In this document: positions 2,493-37,219 of the stretch, piece after piece | Position numbering within the stretch: the first letter of the stretch is position 1 | Layout of the letters: every line of letters starts with the position of its first letter | IMG/VR virus record: IMGVR_UViG_3300047463_000227 | Location: 1-37,219 of that record | From: a virus | Lineage: Duplodnaviria > Caudoviricetes | Length of the DNA: 37,219 nucleotides | Reading direction: 5' to 3' (one strand) | Notes under the pieces: model-generated | What the model was told of the DNA's origin: nothing | The model's input: the letters and a program-made list of their open reading frames with translations, nothing else | Database searches by the model: none | Translations under genes and position numbers: made by a program

Positions 2493-2707
2493 CAGGCGGC
2501 CTCCGGGTACAGGTCCGGCCGCAGATCGTGCTTTGAAACCTTGGTCGCGCCCTCAATGGCGAGGACTTTGTCGGCCGGAGCCCTCTTGGCCTTGTTAAGC
2601 CAGTACCAAACGTGGGCTTGGGTGACGCCTTTGCCGAGTTTGCGCGCAAGAGCTGATTGCCCCCCCGCTTGGTTTACCGCAGCCCGTAGAGCCTGAAGTT
2701 CATCCAT
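2492..2707 (-). CDS. cro: Cro/YdaS-like repressor
   Basis: AGGQSALARKLG..VTQAHVWYWL..IEGAT.VSKHDLRPDLY, divergent from cI. Confidence 0.9.
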   Translation of the reverse strand: MDELQALRAAVNQAGGQSALARKLGKGVTQAHVWYWLNKAKRAPADKVLAIEGATKVSKHDLRPDLYPEAA

Positions 2708-2715
2708 GCCCCATG

Positions 2716-2757
2716 ATATACAAGTTTTCTTTTCAGTTAGTCAACAAGAAAACTTTT
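2716..2757 (-). promoter_or_regulatory. PR-like promoter with two 14-bp operators
   Basis: Minus-strand TTGACT (2744-2739)-N17-GTATAT (2721-2716). Operators are ACAAGTTTTCTTTT (2720-2733) and ACAAGAAAACTTTT (2744-2757). Confidence 0.75.
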
Positions 2758-2796
2758 GAAGCACCGCACCCCCTTTTTTTGTAGCCTTCAACCGCA

Positions 2797-3252
2797 ATGA
2801 GCATTGGGAAAAGAGTAGCCAAATGGCGGGCCGCGCGGGGCTGGTCTCAGACTGAACTCGCGGAGCGGCTTAACCTGGCCGGGGCCAAGAACGTCAGACA
2901 GGCTCATATCACGCAACTGGAGAGCGAAGAAACCCAAAGGCCGCGCTACCTCACGGCGCTGGCCCGGGTCCTCGGCCTGAATCTTCCCTACCTTGAGCAT
3001 GGCGAGGGACCCGAGGAAGCGGCTAGTGGCCCACTAGATCCCGCCCAAGATATACGGAGCGCAACCGAGGTCGCCACACGCGCCGTCGATTTCGCGTTAA
3101 GAGAACTTAAGCATTCCTTGTCCCCCCGGTTTCGAGAGGCACTGATCGCGGGGGCCGTAGAACACGAAATTGAATGGCGACGAACCGCGCGTGAGAATAG
3201 CCTAGCTGCTTTACCGCGTACCGCACGGCCCGCCAAAAAGCGGGGTCGTTAA
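2797..3252 (+). CDS. cI: CI-like repressor with a phage 434-type N-terminal HTH and no S24 peptidase domain
   Basis: SIGKRV..R..G.SQ.ELA...QLE..T.RPRYL..LA..LG parallels the 434 repressor N-domain. Divergent from cro. Confidence 0.85.
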   Translation: MSIGKRVAKWRAARGWSQTELAERLNLAGAKNVRQAHITQLESEETQRPRYLTALARVLGLNLPYLEHGEGPEEAASGPLDPAQDIRSATEVATRAVDFALRELKHSLSPRFREALIAGAVEHEIEWRRTARENSLAALPRTARPAKKRGR

Positions 3253-3605: not shown

Positions 3606-3647
3606 ATAAGAATACTTGTTGACGCAATACAAATTTTCTTTTAGTGT
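3606..3647 (+). promoter_or_regulatory. PL-like sigma70 promoter with two operators
   Basis: TTGACG (3619-3624)-N17-TAGTGT (3642-3647). Operators are ATAAGAATACTTGT (3606-3619) and ACAAATTTTCTTTT (3629-3642). Confidence 0.8.
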
Positions 3648-20203: not shown

Positions 20204-20854
20204 TTACTCCACGTGCTTCCAAGTCTTCCGATTGACCACATCCGAAACCTTGGTCTGCGCTACGCCGTATATCCACGCGAGTTTCTGCTGTGTTAGTCCG
20301 CCGCTCCGGTAGAGAGATCGGATTGCGCGAACATCGCTTTCCTTAAGCGTGGCCATGCCGGAACGCTCGCCGCGAGCCTGCCGACCCTTGGTGTCCCTAT
20401 CCCGCACGTTGTCCGCTGGCGTACCCAAGAACAGGTGGGTCGGATTCACGCAGAGCCGATTGTCGCACTTGTGGCAGACGAGCATTCCTGCGGGAACGCC
20501 GCCTTTGGCAAACAAGTACGAATACTTGTGCGCCGGATGCTGCACATTCTTGATCTTGAAGCGTCCGTAGCCGCCGACTGGTTCGCGCCAACCCAGCCAG
20601 GTCCAGCATCCATCGACCGACGACTTATCAACGAGAGCCCAAAAATCCGCCTCTCTGTTTGCGGGGCGCCCCTCTGCTTCATGAAGCAGGCAGCCACACG
20701 ACTTGATGCCACCGTTCTTCAGGTGGCTTGCCGTGACGACCGTTTCGCCGCCGCAATCACAGCGACAACGCCACAGCCTTTTGCCGTGAGCGTTACTACC
20801 GGCCGGCGCGATGGCGGTCAGGCGATTAAATTTGAGGCCGAGAAGTTGAAGCAT
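20204..20854 (-). CDS. free-standing HNH homing endonuclease
   Basis: G.KFNRLT..W.CRCDCG..SCGC, CWTW.G..GYG..AH...VCHKCDNRLCVNPTHLFLGT..DN..D, and a C-terminal HTH. Confidence 0.9.
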   Translation of the reverse strand: MLQLLGLKFNRLTAIAPAGSNAHGKRLWRCRCDCGGETVVTASHLKNGGIKSCGCLLHEAEGRPANREADFWALVDKSSVDGCWTWLGWREPVGGYGRFKIKNVQHPAHKYSYLFAKGGVPAGMLVCHKCDNRLCVNPTHLFLGTPADNVRDRDTKGRQARGERSGMATLKESDVRAIRSLYRSGGLTQQKLAWIYGVAQTKVSDVVNRKTWKHVE

Positions 20855-21225
20855 GCAAGTAAAATGGCTCCGAGTATCGCGAGGCGGAACGTCTTGTCCG
20901 TCTGCGCGTTGTTGGCGTGCGTCACGGTCCATGACCCGTTGTTCATGTTCGCTGCCGTCACGTAGGTCGTTGCAAGGGCCGCCGCCGCGTTCGCCGTCAT
21001 CGGCATGAAGCCGACATAGGAGAACGCCGTCAGCCTGGGGTCGGTTAGTGTCGTGCTCGCCGCGTTCGCGGTGAGGGTGAAGTCTGCGTCCGCCACGCGG
21101 TAAACCGCGTTCAGCTTGCCCGCGTTGATCCGGTTGACCACCGAGGCAATCGCGCGGGCGAAGGTTCTGACACCGGCCCAGCTATCCTGTCCGATGTCGG
21201 TAGGCGAGTTCAGGAACAGCGGCAT
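20818..21225 (-). CDS. small tail structural protein
   Basis: GKLNA...TLTANAASTTLTDPR...PMTANAAA...THANNAQTDKTF, in the tail operon. Confidence 0.7.
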   Translation of the reverse strand: MPLFLNSPTDIGQDSWAGVRTFARAIASVVNRINAGKLNAVYRVADADFTLTANAASTTLTDPRLTAFSYVGFMPMTANAAAALATTYVTAANMNNGSWTVTHANNAQTDKTFRLAILGAILLACFNFSASNLIA

Positions 21226-32340: not shown

Positions 32341-33746
32341 GAGCGGCCAGTCCGATGGCGGCGCTTGTAGCGGTCAGATTCATGTGCTTCCCGTCTCTCA
32401 AGCCCGCCGGCAAAGGTCAGAATGAACGCATCGGCCAGGTCAGGAGACCTAAGCCCGCGCTTTTTAAGTTCGTCCTTGGGCTCGACCAGAATCTTGCCCG
32501 ACGATGTGAAGCTGTAGAGCGGCGCTGTCAGTTCGCTGATCAACGCCTCGTCACGAACAATCCGGCACTCGCGGGCGCGGAACCAGTCGCGCACCCGAAA
32601 CCAAAGCTCATCACGCAAGCGCATGAACCGCTCGGACGCCGCCGGGCTCTCCGCGACGTTGACGCCCCTGACCGGAAGCCCCAGCTCGTTGAGCCTGTCA
32701 ACCACACCGGCACCCAAGCCGATCACGTCAACAAGGATCTCGGCGGGCAGCAGATCCTTGGCGGTCTGCTCGACAAATCGGTATTCATCCATCACCAGAC
32801 CGGCCACTTGCATGGTGTCCTTGCCGCGCCACCACTTGACGGGCTCGCTGACCGTGTTGCCCTGACGCTTGGCCAGGGCTGTCCGGTCATCGCCATATCT
32901 TGCAACGTCCACACCCCACACAGGCCGGAATGCTTCATTCGGCTCTATGTTGCGGCCAATCGCGGGAAGAACCGTGTCGAGCGGGATTACCGTCTCGTCT
33001 TCCTGCGTCGGGAACTCGCCTAAGACGCGAATCTTGTAGGCGTTCGAGTCCTTGCCGTACTTGGCAATGATGTCGTCGATGTGGCCCCGTGCTGCGGGAA
33101 CATCCTCGGACGATACGCGAAAGGTCTTCCAGCGATGCCTTAGCGAGTGGTGAGAGTCGTAGAAATAGCCCGATAGCTTGGTCGGGTTGCCGCACATAAG
33201 CTGTTTAGCGCCGGGCGTCGATAGAGCGCCCATCGCAACCTCAACGATGCCATCGGCAATGCCAGAGGCTTCCTCGAGCACAAACAGCAGGTTTTTGGCG
33301 TGAAAGCCCTGTAATGCCTCGGTGTTGTGTTCTGCGGCAGTTCTTGCAACGGCAAAGCATTGCGGTGCCGCTTTTAAGTGTAGGCGTTCGCCTGTTATTT
33401 CGATCTGATCCCTGAGCAGTTCCGGCAGCTTGCCGTGCCATTGGCGAAGCTCGGGCCACACAACGTCTCTGAGCTGGTCCTGACTGTTGGCGGTGATCGG
33501 GATCTTGAACTCCCGCCGCGTCAGCATGAACCAGAGGACGACCCATGCCTCGAGGGTGGTCTTGCCTACACCGTGACCGGCGCGGATGCTAACGCGGTCG
33601 TGCTCACCTATCGCTTTTAGGGCTTCTGCCTGCCAGGGATACGGGCTGGCGTTTAGTACGTCAGTGACGAACAGGAGCGGATTCGTCCCGCTCTCCATCC
33701 ACGCCGCCTGCCACGACGGGGCCGCTTGCGCTAATGCGCTTCTCAT
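32325..33746 (-). CDS. terL: terminase large subunit
   Basis: PWQ, Walker A GHGVGKT, Walker B VLEEASG, GNPT, nuclease GVDVARYGDD and SPDLADA. Confidence 0.95.
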   Translation of the reverse strand: MRSALAQAAPSWQAAWMESGTNPLLFVTDVLNASPYPWQAEALKAIGEHDRVSIRAGHGVGKTTLEAWVVLWFMLTRREFKIPITANSQDQLRDVVWPELRQWHGKLPELLRDQIEITGERLHLKAAPQCFAVARTAAEHNTEALQGFHAKNLLFVLEEASGIADGIVEVAMGALSTPGAKQLMCGNPTKLSGYFYDSHHSLRHRWKTFRVSSEDVPAARGHIDDIIAKYGKDSNAYKIRVLGEFPTQEDETVIPLDTVLPAIGRNIEPNEAFRPVWGVDVARYGDDRTALAKRQGNTVSEPVKWWRGKDTMQVAGLVMDEYRFVEQTAKDLLPAEILVDVIGLGAGVVDRLNELGLPVRGVNVAESPAASERFMRLRDELWFRVRDWFRARECRIVRDEALISELTAPLYSFTSSGKILVEPKDELKKRGLRSPDLADAFILTFAGGLERREAHESDRYKRRHRTGRSWMTA

Positions 33747-33993
33747 CTATGGCCTTGAGGATTTCAAGGAATGTCTCGCCAACATTGGCGTTTAGGTTCA
33801 CGTCCTTGGGCAGCAGCGAGGCAACTACCTTGACGTAGCTTTCCGGAGCCTTCTCAAGCGCTGCGTCGAGGGCGGACTTGCCATGCTGACGCCAGTGGCG
33901 CTCCAGGTCATTTAGAAACGCCTGTGTGATCTTGTCGCGCGATCCGCGCGGGCGACCCTTGGGGTTGCCTGTCTGTCCGGGCTTGAATGTCAT
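33661..33993 (-). CDS. terS: terminase small subunit (DUF5681 N-terminus)
   Basis: FKPGQTGNPKGRPRGSR, YVKVVASLLPK, upstream of terL. Confidence 0.85.
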   Translation of the reverse strand: MTFKPGQTGNPKGRPRGSRDKITQAFLNDLERHWRQHGKSALDAALEKAPESYVKVVASLLPKDVNLNANVGETFLEILKAIDEKRISASGPVVAGGVDGERDESAPVRH

Positions 33994-34029
33994 GGCCGTA
34001 TTGAATCCCCGCTGGTCCGACGCTTTGGG

Positions 34030-34575
34030 TCAAGACAGGTCGTTACAGCGGGCGAATTGGTTGAAGTTCTTAACTGCGGCGGCATTGTAGGCGGCAGCGG
34101 CCTCAATCTCGGTCTCGAAGCACCCGAGATATTTCTTGCGCCCCATGATGTAGATCAGCGCGCGCCAAGGACGCCGGCCCTCTATTCGATAGACACCCTT
34201 AAATTTGGAGGAACACCCGCCCGTTTTTCGTTTTTTTGCATTCTGAATGTTCTGTCGATTGTCGCAGAACCGCAGATTGCAGCGGCGATTGTCAAGCGCG
34301 TTCCCATTGATGTGGTCCACCATGATGCCCGCCGGGGCGCTCATAATGAGCCTGTGCAGCCTGATCGTTTCCTTGCCGCCGCCGATTTCCGAGGTGCGGC
34401 GCGCGTAAACCCTGCCGTCGGGCTTGACGTGGGCTTGCCACTTCCAACGGCAGACCAAGGCCACGTCTTCCGGGGAAATGATCGTCGAGTAGCCCTTTGT
34501 TAGGGGCACGGATACGCCCGCTCCCGCTTGTTCCTCAAGGGATACGGTATGCGTGTCGGTCTGCGGGCGATTCAT
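34030..34575 (-). CDS. HNH-AP2 homing endonuclease
   Basis: LHRLIM....VDHINGNALDNRRCNLR, SSKFKGV...WRA.I....YLG.F.TE.EAA.AYN.AA. Confidence 0.9.
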   Translation of the reverse strand: MNRPQTDTHTVSLEEQAGAGVSVPLTKGYSTIISPEDVALVCRWKWQAHVKPDGRVYARRTSEIGGGKETIRLHRLIMSAPAGIMVDHINGNALDNRRCNLRFCDNRQNIQNAKKRKTGGCSSKFKGVYRIEGRRPWRALIYIMGRKKYLGCFETEIEAAAAYNAAAVKNFNQFARCNDLS

Positions 34576-34598
34576 GGATAATTTGCCGCGCGAACGCT

Positions 34599-35081
34599 TC
34601 ACGCAGCCTGACGGAAATCTACAACTTTCCCGGCTGATTTGCGCCAACGAATGTGCGCCAAGGACTTCTGTTGTCTTGCAATGGCATAGGCGCACAATTC
34701 AGCAAGAGCCTTGAAATACTCACGTTGCAATGTGCGGATCGGCGTGTCGAGTTCATAGCTGATCTGCTTCCATTGTTTGCGTTCGGCGCGTTTCCAGACC
34801 GTGTGCCGCTGGATCTCGGTGAGTTGAGCGCCGCCAATCAGGACGAGAGCGAAATCAAGGCGGGTTATCGCGGCCCTCGATAGTGCGTGGACCGCCCGCC
34901 CCTTGCTGGCCGCTTCCTGACCGTAGTTTTCCCACCAATCGCGCACGGGCTTGGGCTGGGCAGATTGGTAGCCGGCGGGCTTGCACCCCGCTCCAGGCAT
35001 CACACGGAGGGTCAGCGCCGCATCCCGGAACAGCAGCTCGAGATATTTGGACCAGTTCTTGCGGGCTCGTCTCACGTCCAT
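34599..35081 (-). CDS. DUF6362-like late-gene regulator (Q/sigma-region-4-like)
   Basis: AA.TLR.MP...P.GY, AITRLD, VW.RA...WK.I...L, located before the packaging genes. Confidence 0.7.
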   Translation of the reverse strand: MDVRRARKNWSKYLELLFRDAALTLRVMPGAGCKPAGYQSAQPKPVRDWWENYGQEAASKGRAVHALSRAAITRLDFALVLIGGAQLTEIQRHTVWKRAERKQWKQISYELDTPIRTLQREYFKALAELCAYAIARQQKSLAHIRWRKSAGKVVDFRQAA

Positions 35082-35131
35082 ACACCCAAATTATCGGGGC
35101 CGGCCCTAATCGGACCAGCCCCGAAACACAA

Positions 35132-35383
35132 CTATTCTTCGTCGTCACCGACGCCGATCTGTGGGCGTGGCGTCGCCAGATATTCAATCTTCATGGCGTC
35201 CAAGGCGCGCTTAGACAGGGTATCAACCTGCCGAGCCTCCTGAATCGAGATTTCGCCGCGTCTAAATTGTCGCAACGCCTGGACGCATATCTTTCTGATT
35301 CCAGCCGCGTCCTTGACCAGCGCAGCCGTTGGCGGCGGAAGGACGGTTACGCTTGCGTTCTCTACGACGCTTAGTTTGGGCAT
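35132..35383 (-). CDS. hypothetical protein (83 aa)
   Basis: AGGAG SD, F.RGEIS..EA motif. Confidence 0.65.
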   Translation of the reverse strand: MPKLSVVENASVTVLPPPTAALVKDAAGIRKICVQALRQFRRGEISIQEARQVDTLSKRALDAMKIEYLATPRPQIGVGDDEE

Positions 35384-35816
35384 GTTTTATCTCCTGTTGC
35401 AAAAGGTCCAATATTCTCTCAGCGATCTCTTGGTCGTTTAGGCACCAACGGCATTCACGGCAGATCGCGTCTCCGTCGCCGCTTAAGCACTCCGGGTTTA
35501 ATTCACCGCACCAGGCGCAATCGGCGCGCGCATATTTTGCAAACACGCCATCAAACCTGTGTTTGCAGTATGTATCTAAGACCCAAAATGGGACTGGCGG
35601 GCCACCGCCCGAATACGGCAAATGCGCCAGAAAAGCGCCCGAATGAGCCGATCTTCCTCCCCACGAAAAAATTTCATCGGCACGGCATGACGCGTTGTGT
35701 GTTTTGCCGAGCGGCGCAGAACAAGGGGTCGATTCAGCGTGTTCTAGCGCCTTCCAAAAGGCGTATAAGCTGAAATCTCGCCAGCGGCGGGCGAGGCGCA
35801 GAAGTTCCACTGGCAT
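35262..35816 (-). CDS. possible Cys-rich (CxxC..CxxC) hypothetical protein
   Basis: Open frame in an AT-richer segment. It overlaps the next gene by about 120 nt and the start is uncertain. Confidence 0.3.
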   Translation of the reverse strand: MPVELLRLARRWRDFSLYAFWKALEHAESTPCSAPLGKTHNASCRADEIFSWGGRSAHSGAFLAHLPYSGGGPPVPFWVLDTYCKHRFDGVFAKYARADCAWCGELNPECLSGDGDAICRECRWCLNDQEIAERILDLLQQEIKHAQTKRRRERKRNRPSAANGCAGQGRGWNQKDMRPGVATI

Positions 35817-35907
35817 ATATTTATATTTTGCCGCTGTATTCCTCACGCCGCCCCCATCAGATGCTTGTGAACTTCGCAACCCATTGAAAATATGCATTTT
35901 TTAGCTG

Positions 35908-35942
35908 TTGACATCGTCAGCCTAGTTCCGTAATCTAGGAAC
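35908..35942 (+). promoter_or_regulatory. strong sigma70 promoter with an inverted repeat over the -10
   Basis: TTGACA (35908-35913)-N17-TAATCT (35931-35936), and GTTCC-N8-GGAAC at 35925-35942. Confidence 0.8.
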
Positions 35943-35995
35943 CATAGGGCGCGGCCATCGGGGCCAGCCACATAGGGTCGAAAGGACCGATTGAG

Positions 35996-36166
35996 ATGAC
36001 CAAAATACAGATGAAACCGGAAACCATCGAACGGCGCACCCGTGAACGCGCGGCCCGCCAGCTTCTCAATCGCTACATCCGCATTGGCCGACTGCAGCAA
36101 AAGGCCAAGGACGACCCCCACGGGCCATGGGCCGAATTGCTCGCCATCGAAACCCAAGCCGCCTAA
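35996..36166 (+). CDS. small hypothetical protein (56 aa), anti-defence candidate
   Basis: AAGGA SD, MTKIQMKPETIERRTRERAARQLLNRYIRIGRLQQKAKDDPHGPWAELLAIETQAA. Confidence 0.65.
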   Translation: MTKIQMKPETIERRTRERAARQLLNRYIRIGRLQQKAKDDPHGPWAELLAIETQAA

Positions 36167-36175
36167 CCGGGAGAT

Positions 36176-36364
36176 ATGAAGATGACCCCGCGCCAGACCC
36201 TCAACGCTCACGCCGATGCCATCGACGCGGCCATCGCAGCCCTCAAGCGCGACGCGGCCGAAATCTCCCGCACCCTCTCCAAGCCTGATGTTGACTGGCG
36301 AGACGTGACGGCGTGCAATCACATGCGGGCCGCCGCCGACGCCTACCTTGAGATGCGCGGATGA
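36176..36364 (+). CDS. small hypothetical protein (62 aa), anti-defence candidate
   Basis: GGGAG SD, helical, DVDW.DV motif. Confidence 0.7.
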   Translation: MKMTPRQTLNAHADAIDAAIAALKRDAAEISRTLSKPDVDWRDVTACNHMRAAADAYLEMRG

Positions 36365-36564
36365 CCCCAGCCGCTCTACGAACCTACGGCGAGGCTCTTT
36401 TCGGGCCTCGCTGGCAGACCGACCTAGCCCGTGCGCTGGAAGTCTCCGACCGCACCATCCGCTATTGGCTGTCCGGTAAGAAGCCGATACCGGACGGCGC
36501 GGAACAGGATATCCAGCGCCTTGCAGCCAAACGGCAGAAGATGCTGCGCCAGTTGTCACGGTAA
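36361..36564 (+). CDS. small HTH regulator, Aca-like
   Basis: MTPAAL...GEALFGPRWQTDLARALEVSDRTIRYWLSGKKPIP, last gene of the operon. Confidence 0.85.
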   Translation: MTPAALRTYGEALFGPRWQTDLARALEVSDRTIRYWLSGKKPIPDGAEQDIQRLAAKRQKMLRQLSR

Positions 36565-36605
36565 CAACCCCTTCGGCACTTCACAGTGGGGCTCGCCGGG
36601 CTTGG

Positions 36606-37219
36606 TCACTGACCTGAAGCCTCTCGGGCGCGTGTCTCCGCCGTGCTCACATAGAGCGGCTTGGGGCGCGGTGCGGAAAACTCTTGGGCCTTGGGCGACG
36701 CTACCGGCCTGACGGGCATTGCCGGCGGGCGGGTCGCCTTGCGCCAGTCGGTTTCGTCCTTGTTGGATTTGCCGTGATTGCAGCGCCCGCAAAGGACTTG
36801 AAGGTTGTTCGGGTCCAGCGCCAGCTTGGGGAATTTCGAGCGCGGCTTGATGTGGTCTACCTGGATGATGGCCCCGGAAGCGGCATCCGTACCGCAGCAC
36901 ATGCACTTGCCGCCGTAGCGTCTCAGCGTGTCATAGCGGAGTTGCAGCCATTCCTTGCTGTCGAAGAACGGATCGCCAGCGGATAAGCGATTGGAAATCT
37001 GGTCGAATGACGAAGCAAGGGCGTCGCCGATCTTCTGGGGTTCGGCCTCAAAGTCACGGTTCACCCGCGCAATCAGCCCGGCATAGAGCGTGTCAACCTC
37101 CGAATCGGTCATGGTTGCCAGCACCCGGGCAATTCGCGTGGCCCGACGAAACCGTGCCTGCTCGGCGGTGATGTCCGAGACATCGTGCGTATCACCATCA
37201 AGATCCCGGTACTCGGTCA
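36606..37219 (-). CDS. HNH endonuclease (start probably 1 nt beyond the window)
   Basis: EW..LRY..L..YG..C.CCG...VDHIKPRS..P.L.LD.NNLQVLC..CN.GKSN. The frame is open to the window edge, which ends in TG. Confidence 0.85.
   Translation of the reverse strand, partial: TEYRDLDGDTHDVSDITAEQARFRRATRIARVLATMTDSEVDTLYAGLIARVNRDFEAEPQKIGDALASSFDQISNRLSAGDPFFDSKEWLQLRYDTLRRYGGKCMCCGTDAASGAIIQVDHIKPRSKFPKLALDPNNLQVLCGRCNHGKSNKDETDWRKATRPPAMPVRPVASPKAQEFSAPRPKPLYVSTAETRAREASGQ

Follow-up and report, generated by a model that had tools for sequence, protein, structure and literature searches.

Phage counter-defence genes are found chiefly through aca genes and the motifs that go with them, and the definition of the Aca class, together with further operators, is given in the accessible parts of PMC9410906 and PMC12658196. 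Aca2 (DUF1870 / PF08965), known from the acrIF8-aca2 operon of phage ZF40, is encoded by the last gene of a small operon that has an operator in its promoter and hairpins in its leader. According to the available part of PMC8633003, the GTTC half-site of this operator is read in the Aca2-DNA structure by Arg39, Tyr34 and Arg30. The Aca1 and Aca10 operons likewise place an operator in the promoter, followed by a bulged hairpin right after the predicted transcription start and then by the start codon, and carry copies of the motif between genes and before neighbouring operons (available sections of PMC13551039). In those same sections the architecture is common to Aca1, Aca2, Aca10 and Aca12, and RNA binding is shown for Aca1 and Aca2, and not for Aca10 or Aca12. 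Aca9 is a small HTH protein whose gene follows small genes on plasmids and phages of Klebsiella (PMC7648647, accessible part). As a caution, the HTH-like AcrIE9/10a found in acr loci is not a specific repressor, as stated in the accessible part of PMC12248084.

The locus described here resembles these systems in its layout and belongs to phage record IMGVR_UViG_3300047463_000227. The window, meaning the whole stretch of DNA that was analysed, covers the virus record in full (37,219 bases) and is 86% complete. Its terminase, portal, major head and ejection-type genes lie on the minus strand and a divergent cro/cI-like pair is found near 2500-3250, so the phage is likely temperate. The sequencing runs that contain the stretch are aquatic or freshwater metagenomes, and most of the window is covered at 99% or more in run X6 from lake water; no RNA data set was among the runs listed. 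The phage carries three HNH nuclease genes (20204-20932, 34030-34695 and 36606-37217), one of which is the HNH-AP2 gene before the terminase genes.

The cassette is made up of three small genes on the plus strand, ORF1 (35996-36166, 56 aa), ORF2 (36182-36364, 60 aa; first called at 36176-36364, 62 aa) and an HTH gene for a predicted autorepressor (36361-36564, 67 aa, phrog_3626), as listed with their sizes and orientation in the preliminary description. The cassette is also antisense to its neighbours, as had been noted there: an HNH nuclease gene (36606-37217) on one side and a DUF6362 gene (34599-35081), followed by HNH-AP2, DUF5681 and terminase genes, on the other, with both flanking genes on the minus strand. 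Two antisense ORFs of 238 aa (35843-36559) and 211 aa (35262-35897) were treated as shadows, having a third-position GC of 0.59 and 0.52 against 0.71-0.82 in the cassette genes, and the 211-aa ORF had no family match in Pfam or PHROGs.

We regard it as probable that this is an optional phage cassette in which an Aca2-related HTH protein represses its own operon, and in which ORF1 and ORF2 serve counter-defence or host takeover in an early burst. In the proposed course of events, host RNA polymerase would fire the promoter on naked incoming DNA, and ORF1, ORF2 and the translationally coupled HTH protein would be made in a short early burst. HTH dimers would then accumulate and block the promoter at a palindrome over the -10, where GTTCC, if Aca2 is taken as the model, would be read by Arg31, Arg34, Tyr35 and Lys40. 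At high copy number, HTH protein bound to hairpin 1 of the leader, or hairpin 2 stabilised over the ribosome site, may dampen translation. What the sequence comparisons reported below establish is the arrangement of the genes, an operator and a leader common to the family, the exchange of cargo genes and the lack of the surrounding block in a relative.

Promoter, operator and leader of the cassette

A predicted sigma-70-type promoter is located at 35908-35936 on the plus strand and consists of TTGACA (35908-35913), a 17-nt spacer and TAATCT (35931-35936). It had been called near-consensus, which fits the perfect -35 and is overstated for the -10, since TAATCT matches the consensus at only three of six positions and a consensus scan of 33000-37219 found no promoter, that of the window falling below threshold. 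In metagenome contig L070, which carries a related cassette, the -35 is the same and the -10 at the same place reads TAATAT.

The inverted repeat GTTCC-N8-GGAAC lies over the -10 at 35925-35942, where it had been reported before, and is the predicted operator, a variant that agrees with the family consensus TGTCC-N8-GGACA at 6 of 10 positions. Perfect 5-bp repeats are common by chance, being present in 27% of the 40-nt stretches drawn at random from the window and in 2.6% at spacer 8; we count the repeat as real because it is conserved across relatives, and not because of its own rarity. In the window, the full repeat has a single occurrence, and relaxing the pattern adds no more than two further places. 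This distribution argues against a different reading of the locus, in which the HTH protein acts in a Cro-like manner on other phage promoters, and the repeat and the hairpins serve another factor or just mRNA stability.

The cassette promoter was also compared with the presumed targets of the phage repressor. The motif ACAAG-W4-CTTKT, which was read from the cro-cI gap and serves here as the putative CI operator, is found only at 2720, 2744, 3606 and 3629 of the window (8 strand matches against 1.3 expected). These four pseudo-palindrome copies (2720-2757 and 3606-3642) are placed around the cro/cI-like pair and are likely CI operators. If this motif is indeed the operator, the claim that the cassette promoter has no CI operator holds, and from this we infer that the promoter could fire on incoming DNA.

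Between the operator and the start codon lies a conserved two-hairpin leader (35948-35988), which was absent from the preliminary description. Hairpin 1 (35948-35969, plus strand) is a bulged stem with an ATCGG loop and a candidate RNA site for the HTH protein, and hairpin 2 (35976-35988, plus strand) closes over the Shine-Dalgarno of ORF1. The fold of the window leader has a z of about -2, and Rfam gave no match for the leader of L001 or L070. A covariance model built from 36 leaders returned 44 matches in 58 sources, 8 of them new, with one match in the window. The new matches include internal copies in L054, L057 and L065, upstream of the HTH gene and before internal genes, and one at a divergent operon (L034:2803-2850, minus strand); copies before internal genes or neighbouring operons are likewise reported for Aca2 motifs in the available sections of PMC13551039. 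L054 contains two full operator-promoters.

All seven pairs of hairpin 1 could be formed in 37 of the 44 leaders, compared with a control mean of 7.7 and a maximum of 16, and hairpin 2 in 37 of the 44, compared with a mean of 19.6 and a maximum of 28. Both figures come from a best-register fit and are raw counts over leaders, kinship included, with a control in which the halves were swapped under the same fit. Furthermore, several stem positions are G-C in some leaders and C-G in others, and a compensated change distinguishes the window from L070. RNAalifold returned 0 pairs when given a MAFFT alignment and 2 pairs when given the model alignment, on which a pair count came to 63% paired against 54% when shuffled; consensus folding failed, and the paired share was lowered, because leaders with 5-nt and 6-nt loops are out of register.

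The loop reads ATCGG in 5 of the 44 leaders, including that of the window, and ATTGG in 4 of the 44. An ATTGG-loop repeat in the Aca2 promoter probe is presumably the RNA site of Aca2. The probe carries this repeat downstream, as given in the accessible part of PMC9410881. We consider it doubtful that the leader overlaps the published Aca2 motif sets. The proposed RNA-level control by the HTH protein stands at about an even chance.

The HTH family and its kinship to Aca2

The window HTH protein matched phrog_3626 (E 3e-16) and phrog_12690 (E 5e-15), neither of which has a function given. It reached the cut-off of no Pfam family, with sub-threshold HTH matches to Cro, MerR, HTH_3 and YdaS. No literature on phrog_3626, phrog_12690 or GPRWQ was found in a search of mostly open-access journals. 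Relatives of the protein were present in 60 viral contigs, 33 phage records and 718 plasmid records. A profile of 30 family sequences had Aca2 or YdiL for all of its top five PDB matches (E 2e-5 to 2e-3), more specifically the Aca2 structures 7ezy, 8w35, 7vjo and 7b5j at E 2e-5 to 6e-5, and Aca1 was absent from its PDB matches at E up to 1.

The kinship extends to the recognition residues, with Ser28, Arg30, Tyr34 and Trp35 of Aca2 corresponding to Ser29, Arg31, Tyr35 and Trp36 of the window protein, and Arg39 of Aca2 to Lys40. The half-site GTTC is common to the window operator and that of Aca2 (PMC8633003, available part). In contrast, Aca2 has 115-125 aa, whereas the window protein has 67 aa and is without the C-terminal dimerisation domain, the match spanning Aca2 residues ~18-74 only. 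Its PF08965 score of 19 bits lies below the cut-off of 23.8, and its operator is spaced as GTTC-N10-GAAC, unlike the GTTC-N8-GAAC of the Aca2 probe (PMC9410881, accessible part). The cassette would work in the manner of acr-aca2, but score, length and operator spacing place the window HTH protein outside the Aca2 family. The 10-nt spacing would fit a different dimer in a protein without the Aca2 C-terminal domain (PMC8434428, accessible part). A homodimer prediction for the HTH protein scored 0.32, below the mark of 0.42, and speaks neither way. The protein thus offers a one-domain test case of whether dual DNA/RNA control by Aca2-type HTH proteins needs the C-terminal domain of Aca2.

Further differences separate the family from the described Aca proteins. 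The motif EAL[YF]GPRW is specific to the family of the window protein, unlike Aca2, and the Aca1 and Aca10 operators differ from that of the family in the probe sequences. An identity with Aca9 was considered and rejected, the listed Aca9 homologues being without the GPRW motif by inspection (PMC7648647, supplement 12, within the accessible material). Accessions of the Klebsiella members of the family were absent from the 13 supplements of that paper searched for Aca9.

Members of phrog_12690 differ from the window protein by an extra N-terminal domain of ~100 aa. At L071:3692-4207, L072:2701-3219 and L007:2180-2740, the HTH is fused behind this domain, which ends in a FWLGYY-like stretch. A three-sequence profile matched two Cas11c-sized chains of the 'CT1133 family', 9jhb_B and 7kha_K, no better than at E 0.9. 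Possibly, this is a Cas11-like domain on mobile elements.

Operator and recognition helix across the family

Among the 49 loci left after dereplication, 27 have TGTCC-N8-GGACA at 9 or more of its 10 positions in the 1 kb upstream, compared with 0 of 47 downstream controls. As the motif had been derived from the same loci on which it was scored, the test was reversed, so that the DNA motif was searched first and the HTH gene second. In a scan of the viral contigs for the operator together with hairpin 1, an HTH gene lay downstream in 11 of 11 matches; six of these were outside the protein-found set, two of the six being near-identical. The family thereby adds a handle at the level of DNA, one that points at cargo with almost no annotation. 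Some relatives (L006, L074, L026 and L059) have no such promoter or leader.

Most relatives have Arg in place of Tyr35, together with TGTCC. Of 69 loci, 41 have an operator that we could place; the others, with the two Klebsiella plasmid loci among them, lie outside the count of residue-to-base agreement. In all 5 loci whose helix Trp follows a residue other than Arg (Tyr twice, Gly, Asn and Ala), operator position 2 is T..A, against 0 of 36 with Arg; where Gln stands one residue earlier, position 5 is G..C in 6 of 7, against 0 of 34. Adjusted for kinship, these counts reduce to 1-4 and 2 independent pairs, which is not significant on a poorly resolved tree. The operator letters appear to vary with the residues of the recognition helix in the way expected from the Aca2-DNA structure, at a level short of significance. 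Independent support is given by the available part of PMC8633003, where Tyr34 of Aca2 contacts the T of GTTC, the base position that varies with the aligned residue here. The Gln trait at position 5 is not explained by this structure, because Gln33 there contacts only the backbone (same part of PMC8633003). With single operator bases seeming to change along with single residues of the recognition helix, the family amounts to a natural series. On large Klebsiella plasmids (L002:2968-3228 and L003:2968-3228), the helix differs (DGRRIRQW) and the promoter carries GTACC-N8-GGTAC, beside a DNA cytosine methyltransferase gene.

These results also bear on the reading of the HTH protein as a Cro-like regulator of other phage promoters. 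Its weak matches to Cro, MerR and HTH_3 would fit such a role, as would the position of some relatives inside long gene runs without a leader (L074). The success of the DNA motif in predicting an HTH gene in 11 of 11 cases, and operator letters that follow the HTH residues, argue against it, and we consider it very improbable. Aca-like autorepression is instead well supported by the variable neighbours of the HTH gene, the family-wide operator, the residue-to-base agreement, Aca2 as the nearest solved relative, the exchange of the first gene and the empty site. The earlier proposal of autorepression at the promoter repeat is thereby strengthened by computation, in particular by the family-wide operator, the reverse scan (11/11) and the kinship to Aca2, and repression of its own operon by the HTH protein at the level of DNA is very likely.

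Cargo genes and the accessory block

Across 44 loci, 71 ORFs accompanying the HTH gene fell into 56 groups, 43 of them singletons, by our own gene calls. The gene directly before the HTH gene belongs to 37 different groups in the 44 loci. This guilt-by-association search bears out the layout described before as acr-aca-like, in which the HTH gene ends short operons with highly variable small upstream genes; invariant neighbours, which the preliminary description held to speak against it, were not found by the comparison. The cargo proteins have a median size of 80 aa, with 29 of 72 acidic and 22 of 72 basic.

The same variability weighs on a further alternative, already named in the preliminary description, that ORF2 (or ORF1) and the HTH protein form a toxin-antitoxin pair in reversed order, as HigBA does. 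ORF2 and the HTH gene overlap by ATGA and are kept together in L070, and the HTH protein has weak similarity to YdaS (below cut-off) and to HigA-2 (E 0.011), all of which such a pair would account for. The HTH gene, however, has no fixed cognate partner, and one antitoxin could not neutralise the products of 37 unrelated gene groups. ORF2 had no toxin-family match in the family scans, Pfam and PHROGs among them. We therefore judge a toxin-antitoxin pair to be very unlikely.

The exchange of cargo can be followed directly in L070. Its promoter and leader are 79% identical to those of the window over 94 nt, and ORF2 and the HTH gene 83% over 404 nt, while the slot of ORF1 is taken by an unrelated 87-aa gene with sharp borders, one at the ATG and the other ~9 nt short of the stop codon. 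This replacement gene has no true relative among the viral contigs. Codon differences between the window and L070 lean toward silent ones, with 17 silent against 8 changed in ORF2 and 17 against 13 in the HTH gene. Outside the cassette, the two have just 61 nt and 35 nt in common, and the cassette of L070 occupies the same position as in the window, before the packaging genes.

ORF1, the occupant of this exchangeable slot in the window, encodes a basic protein (pI 10.5) predicted to form a long and a short helix. A protein search returned ORF1 alone, tblastn against phages gave matches at E 7 only, and the Atlas was blank; a viral match in L068 was spurious, as it sits within an unrelated 1846-aa ORF. 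ORF2 is a predicted helical hairpin. Its true start is more likely 36182 than 36176, since GGAG lies 8 nt before the former and only 2 nt before the latter, and since relatives are called at 60 aa. It belongs to a rare family of three 90% clusters. No relatives of ORF2 were found in viral contigs, phages or plasmids, a profile search of the full library returned only P0011 and four repeat-like proteins, and the fold search gave nothing by Foldseek at E up to 0.001 and a blank in the Atlas. A supposed likeness of ORF2 to small proteins beside DUF3489 genes gained no support from a PHROG scan, and a match in genome contig L069 was a 19-residue chance match. This Thermoguttaceae contig also contains a 1253-aa ORF (L069:6307-10068, minus strand) that looks by eye like a Cas13-type protein.

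Neither ORF1 nor ORF2 showed similarity to known Acr proteins in family and relative searches, with the model of ORF2 also included in the fold search, and the functions suggested for both are read from position alone. Across the family, no Acr or anti-defence family was found among 69 cargo proteins in Pfam and PHROGs, or among 74 in NCBIfam. The cassette of Aca2 contains a known acr gene, whereas none was found in the cargo of the window family, and we withhold the strict Aca label from the window protein because no verified acr neighbour was found. The few annotated cargo proteins are a GNAT acetyltransferase, a DnaJ-domain protein and a hexapeptide-repeat protein. AcrVA5 is a small GNAT anti-CRISPR. 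In Edwardsiella phage EPP-1, a 103-aa GNAT acetyltransferase (L004:2169-2480) is the sole cargo, and no AcrVA5 match appeared for it.

Among plasmid loci, one relative of the HTH gene lies beside genes for a DNA methyltransferase and a restriction protein. A plasmid cargo protein (L071:3271-3681), encoded near a DEAD/DEAH helicase, has AcrIF23 as its only PDB match, a weak one (E 0.041); distant AcrIF23 homologues and such helicases occur in Aca operons (available sections of PMC13551039). This protein and a second cargo protein (L072:2041-2631), which is without a PDB match, have an LxGxEKQIAWA-like stretch in common.

The nature of the cargo decides between our reading and one in which the cassette is equally autoregulated and its cargo is of the moron type, made by the prophage to serve the fitness of the lysogen, the exclusion of superinfecting phages or host physiology. 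A moron role would be in line with a cargo that has no known Acr and whose few annotations are of the GNAT, DnaJ-domain and hexapeptide-repeat kind, with the cro/cI switch, through which the cassette could act in lysogeny, and with structural homologues of Aca2 that exist outside acr loci (accessible part of PMC8434428). Yet small, fast-turnover, unannotated cargo under dual control resembles anti-defence operons (available sections of PMC13551039), and on large plasmids the family stands beside a DNA methyltransferase and a restriction gene, or an AcrIF23-like gene and a DEAD/DEAH helicase. On balance, we hold a moron-type cargo to be rather unlikely. For counter-defence cargo as such, the chances are evenly divided, and a true anti-CRISPR in the window is unlikely.

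In its widest form, our reading would make these loci a new and widespread Aca-class family of environmental phages and large plasmids, in which a minimal Aca2-type HTH protein with its own operator, a readable residue-to-base code and an RNA leader controls counter-defence genes that can be exchanged. The signature in the DNA would by itself mark at least 56 small-protein groups, nearly all uncharacterised and including ORF1 and ORF2, as defence inhibitors beyond the known Acr set. We consider this possible, at somewhat less than an even chance. In other phages, dozens of different unknown genes stand behind the same control parts and may be new anti-defence tools; if the cargo is not counter-defence, the finding shrinks to a tidy new autorepressor family.

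The cassette sits within a block of 1544 nt (35077-36620), which in a close relative is replaced by 230 other bases. More specifically, contigs of runs X17 and X18, both from one study, join 35076 to 36621 across these 230 bases. The X18 contig differs from the flanking HNH gene at 27 positions in ~600 nt, and only 39 nt could be matched on the other side. In run X12, from a second study, a divergence or loose end was seen at the same point, 36621. Due to the empty-site contigs of X17 and X18 and the divergence of X12 at the same point, the block is likely accessory. Upstream of the cassette promoter, it also holds an 83-aa orphan ORF (35132-35383, minus strand) and, within 35132-35900, ~500 nt of apparently non-coding DNA.
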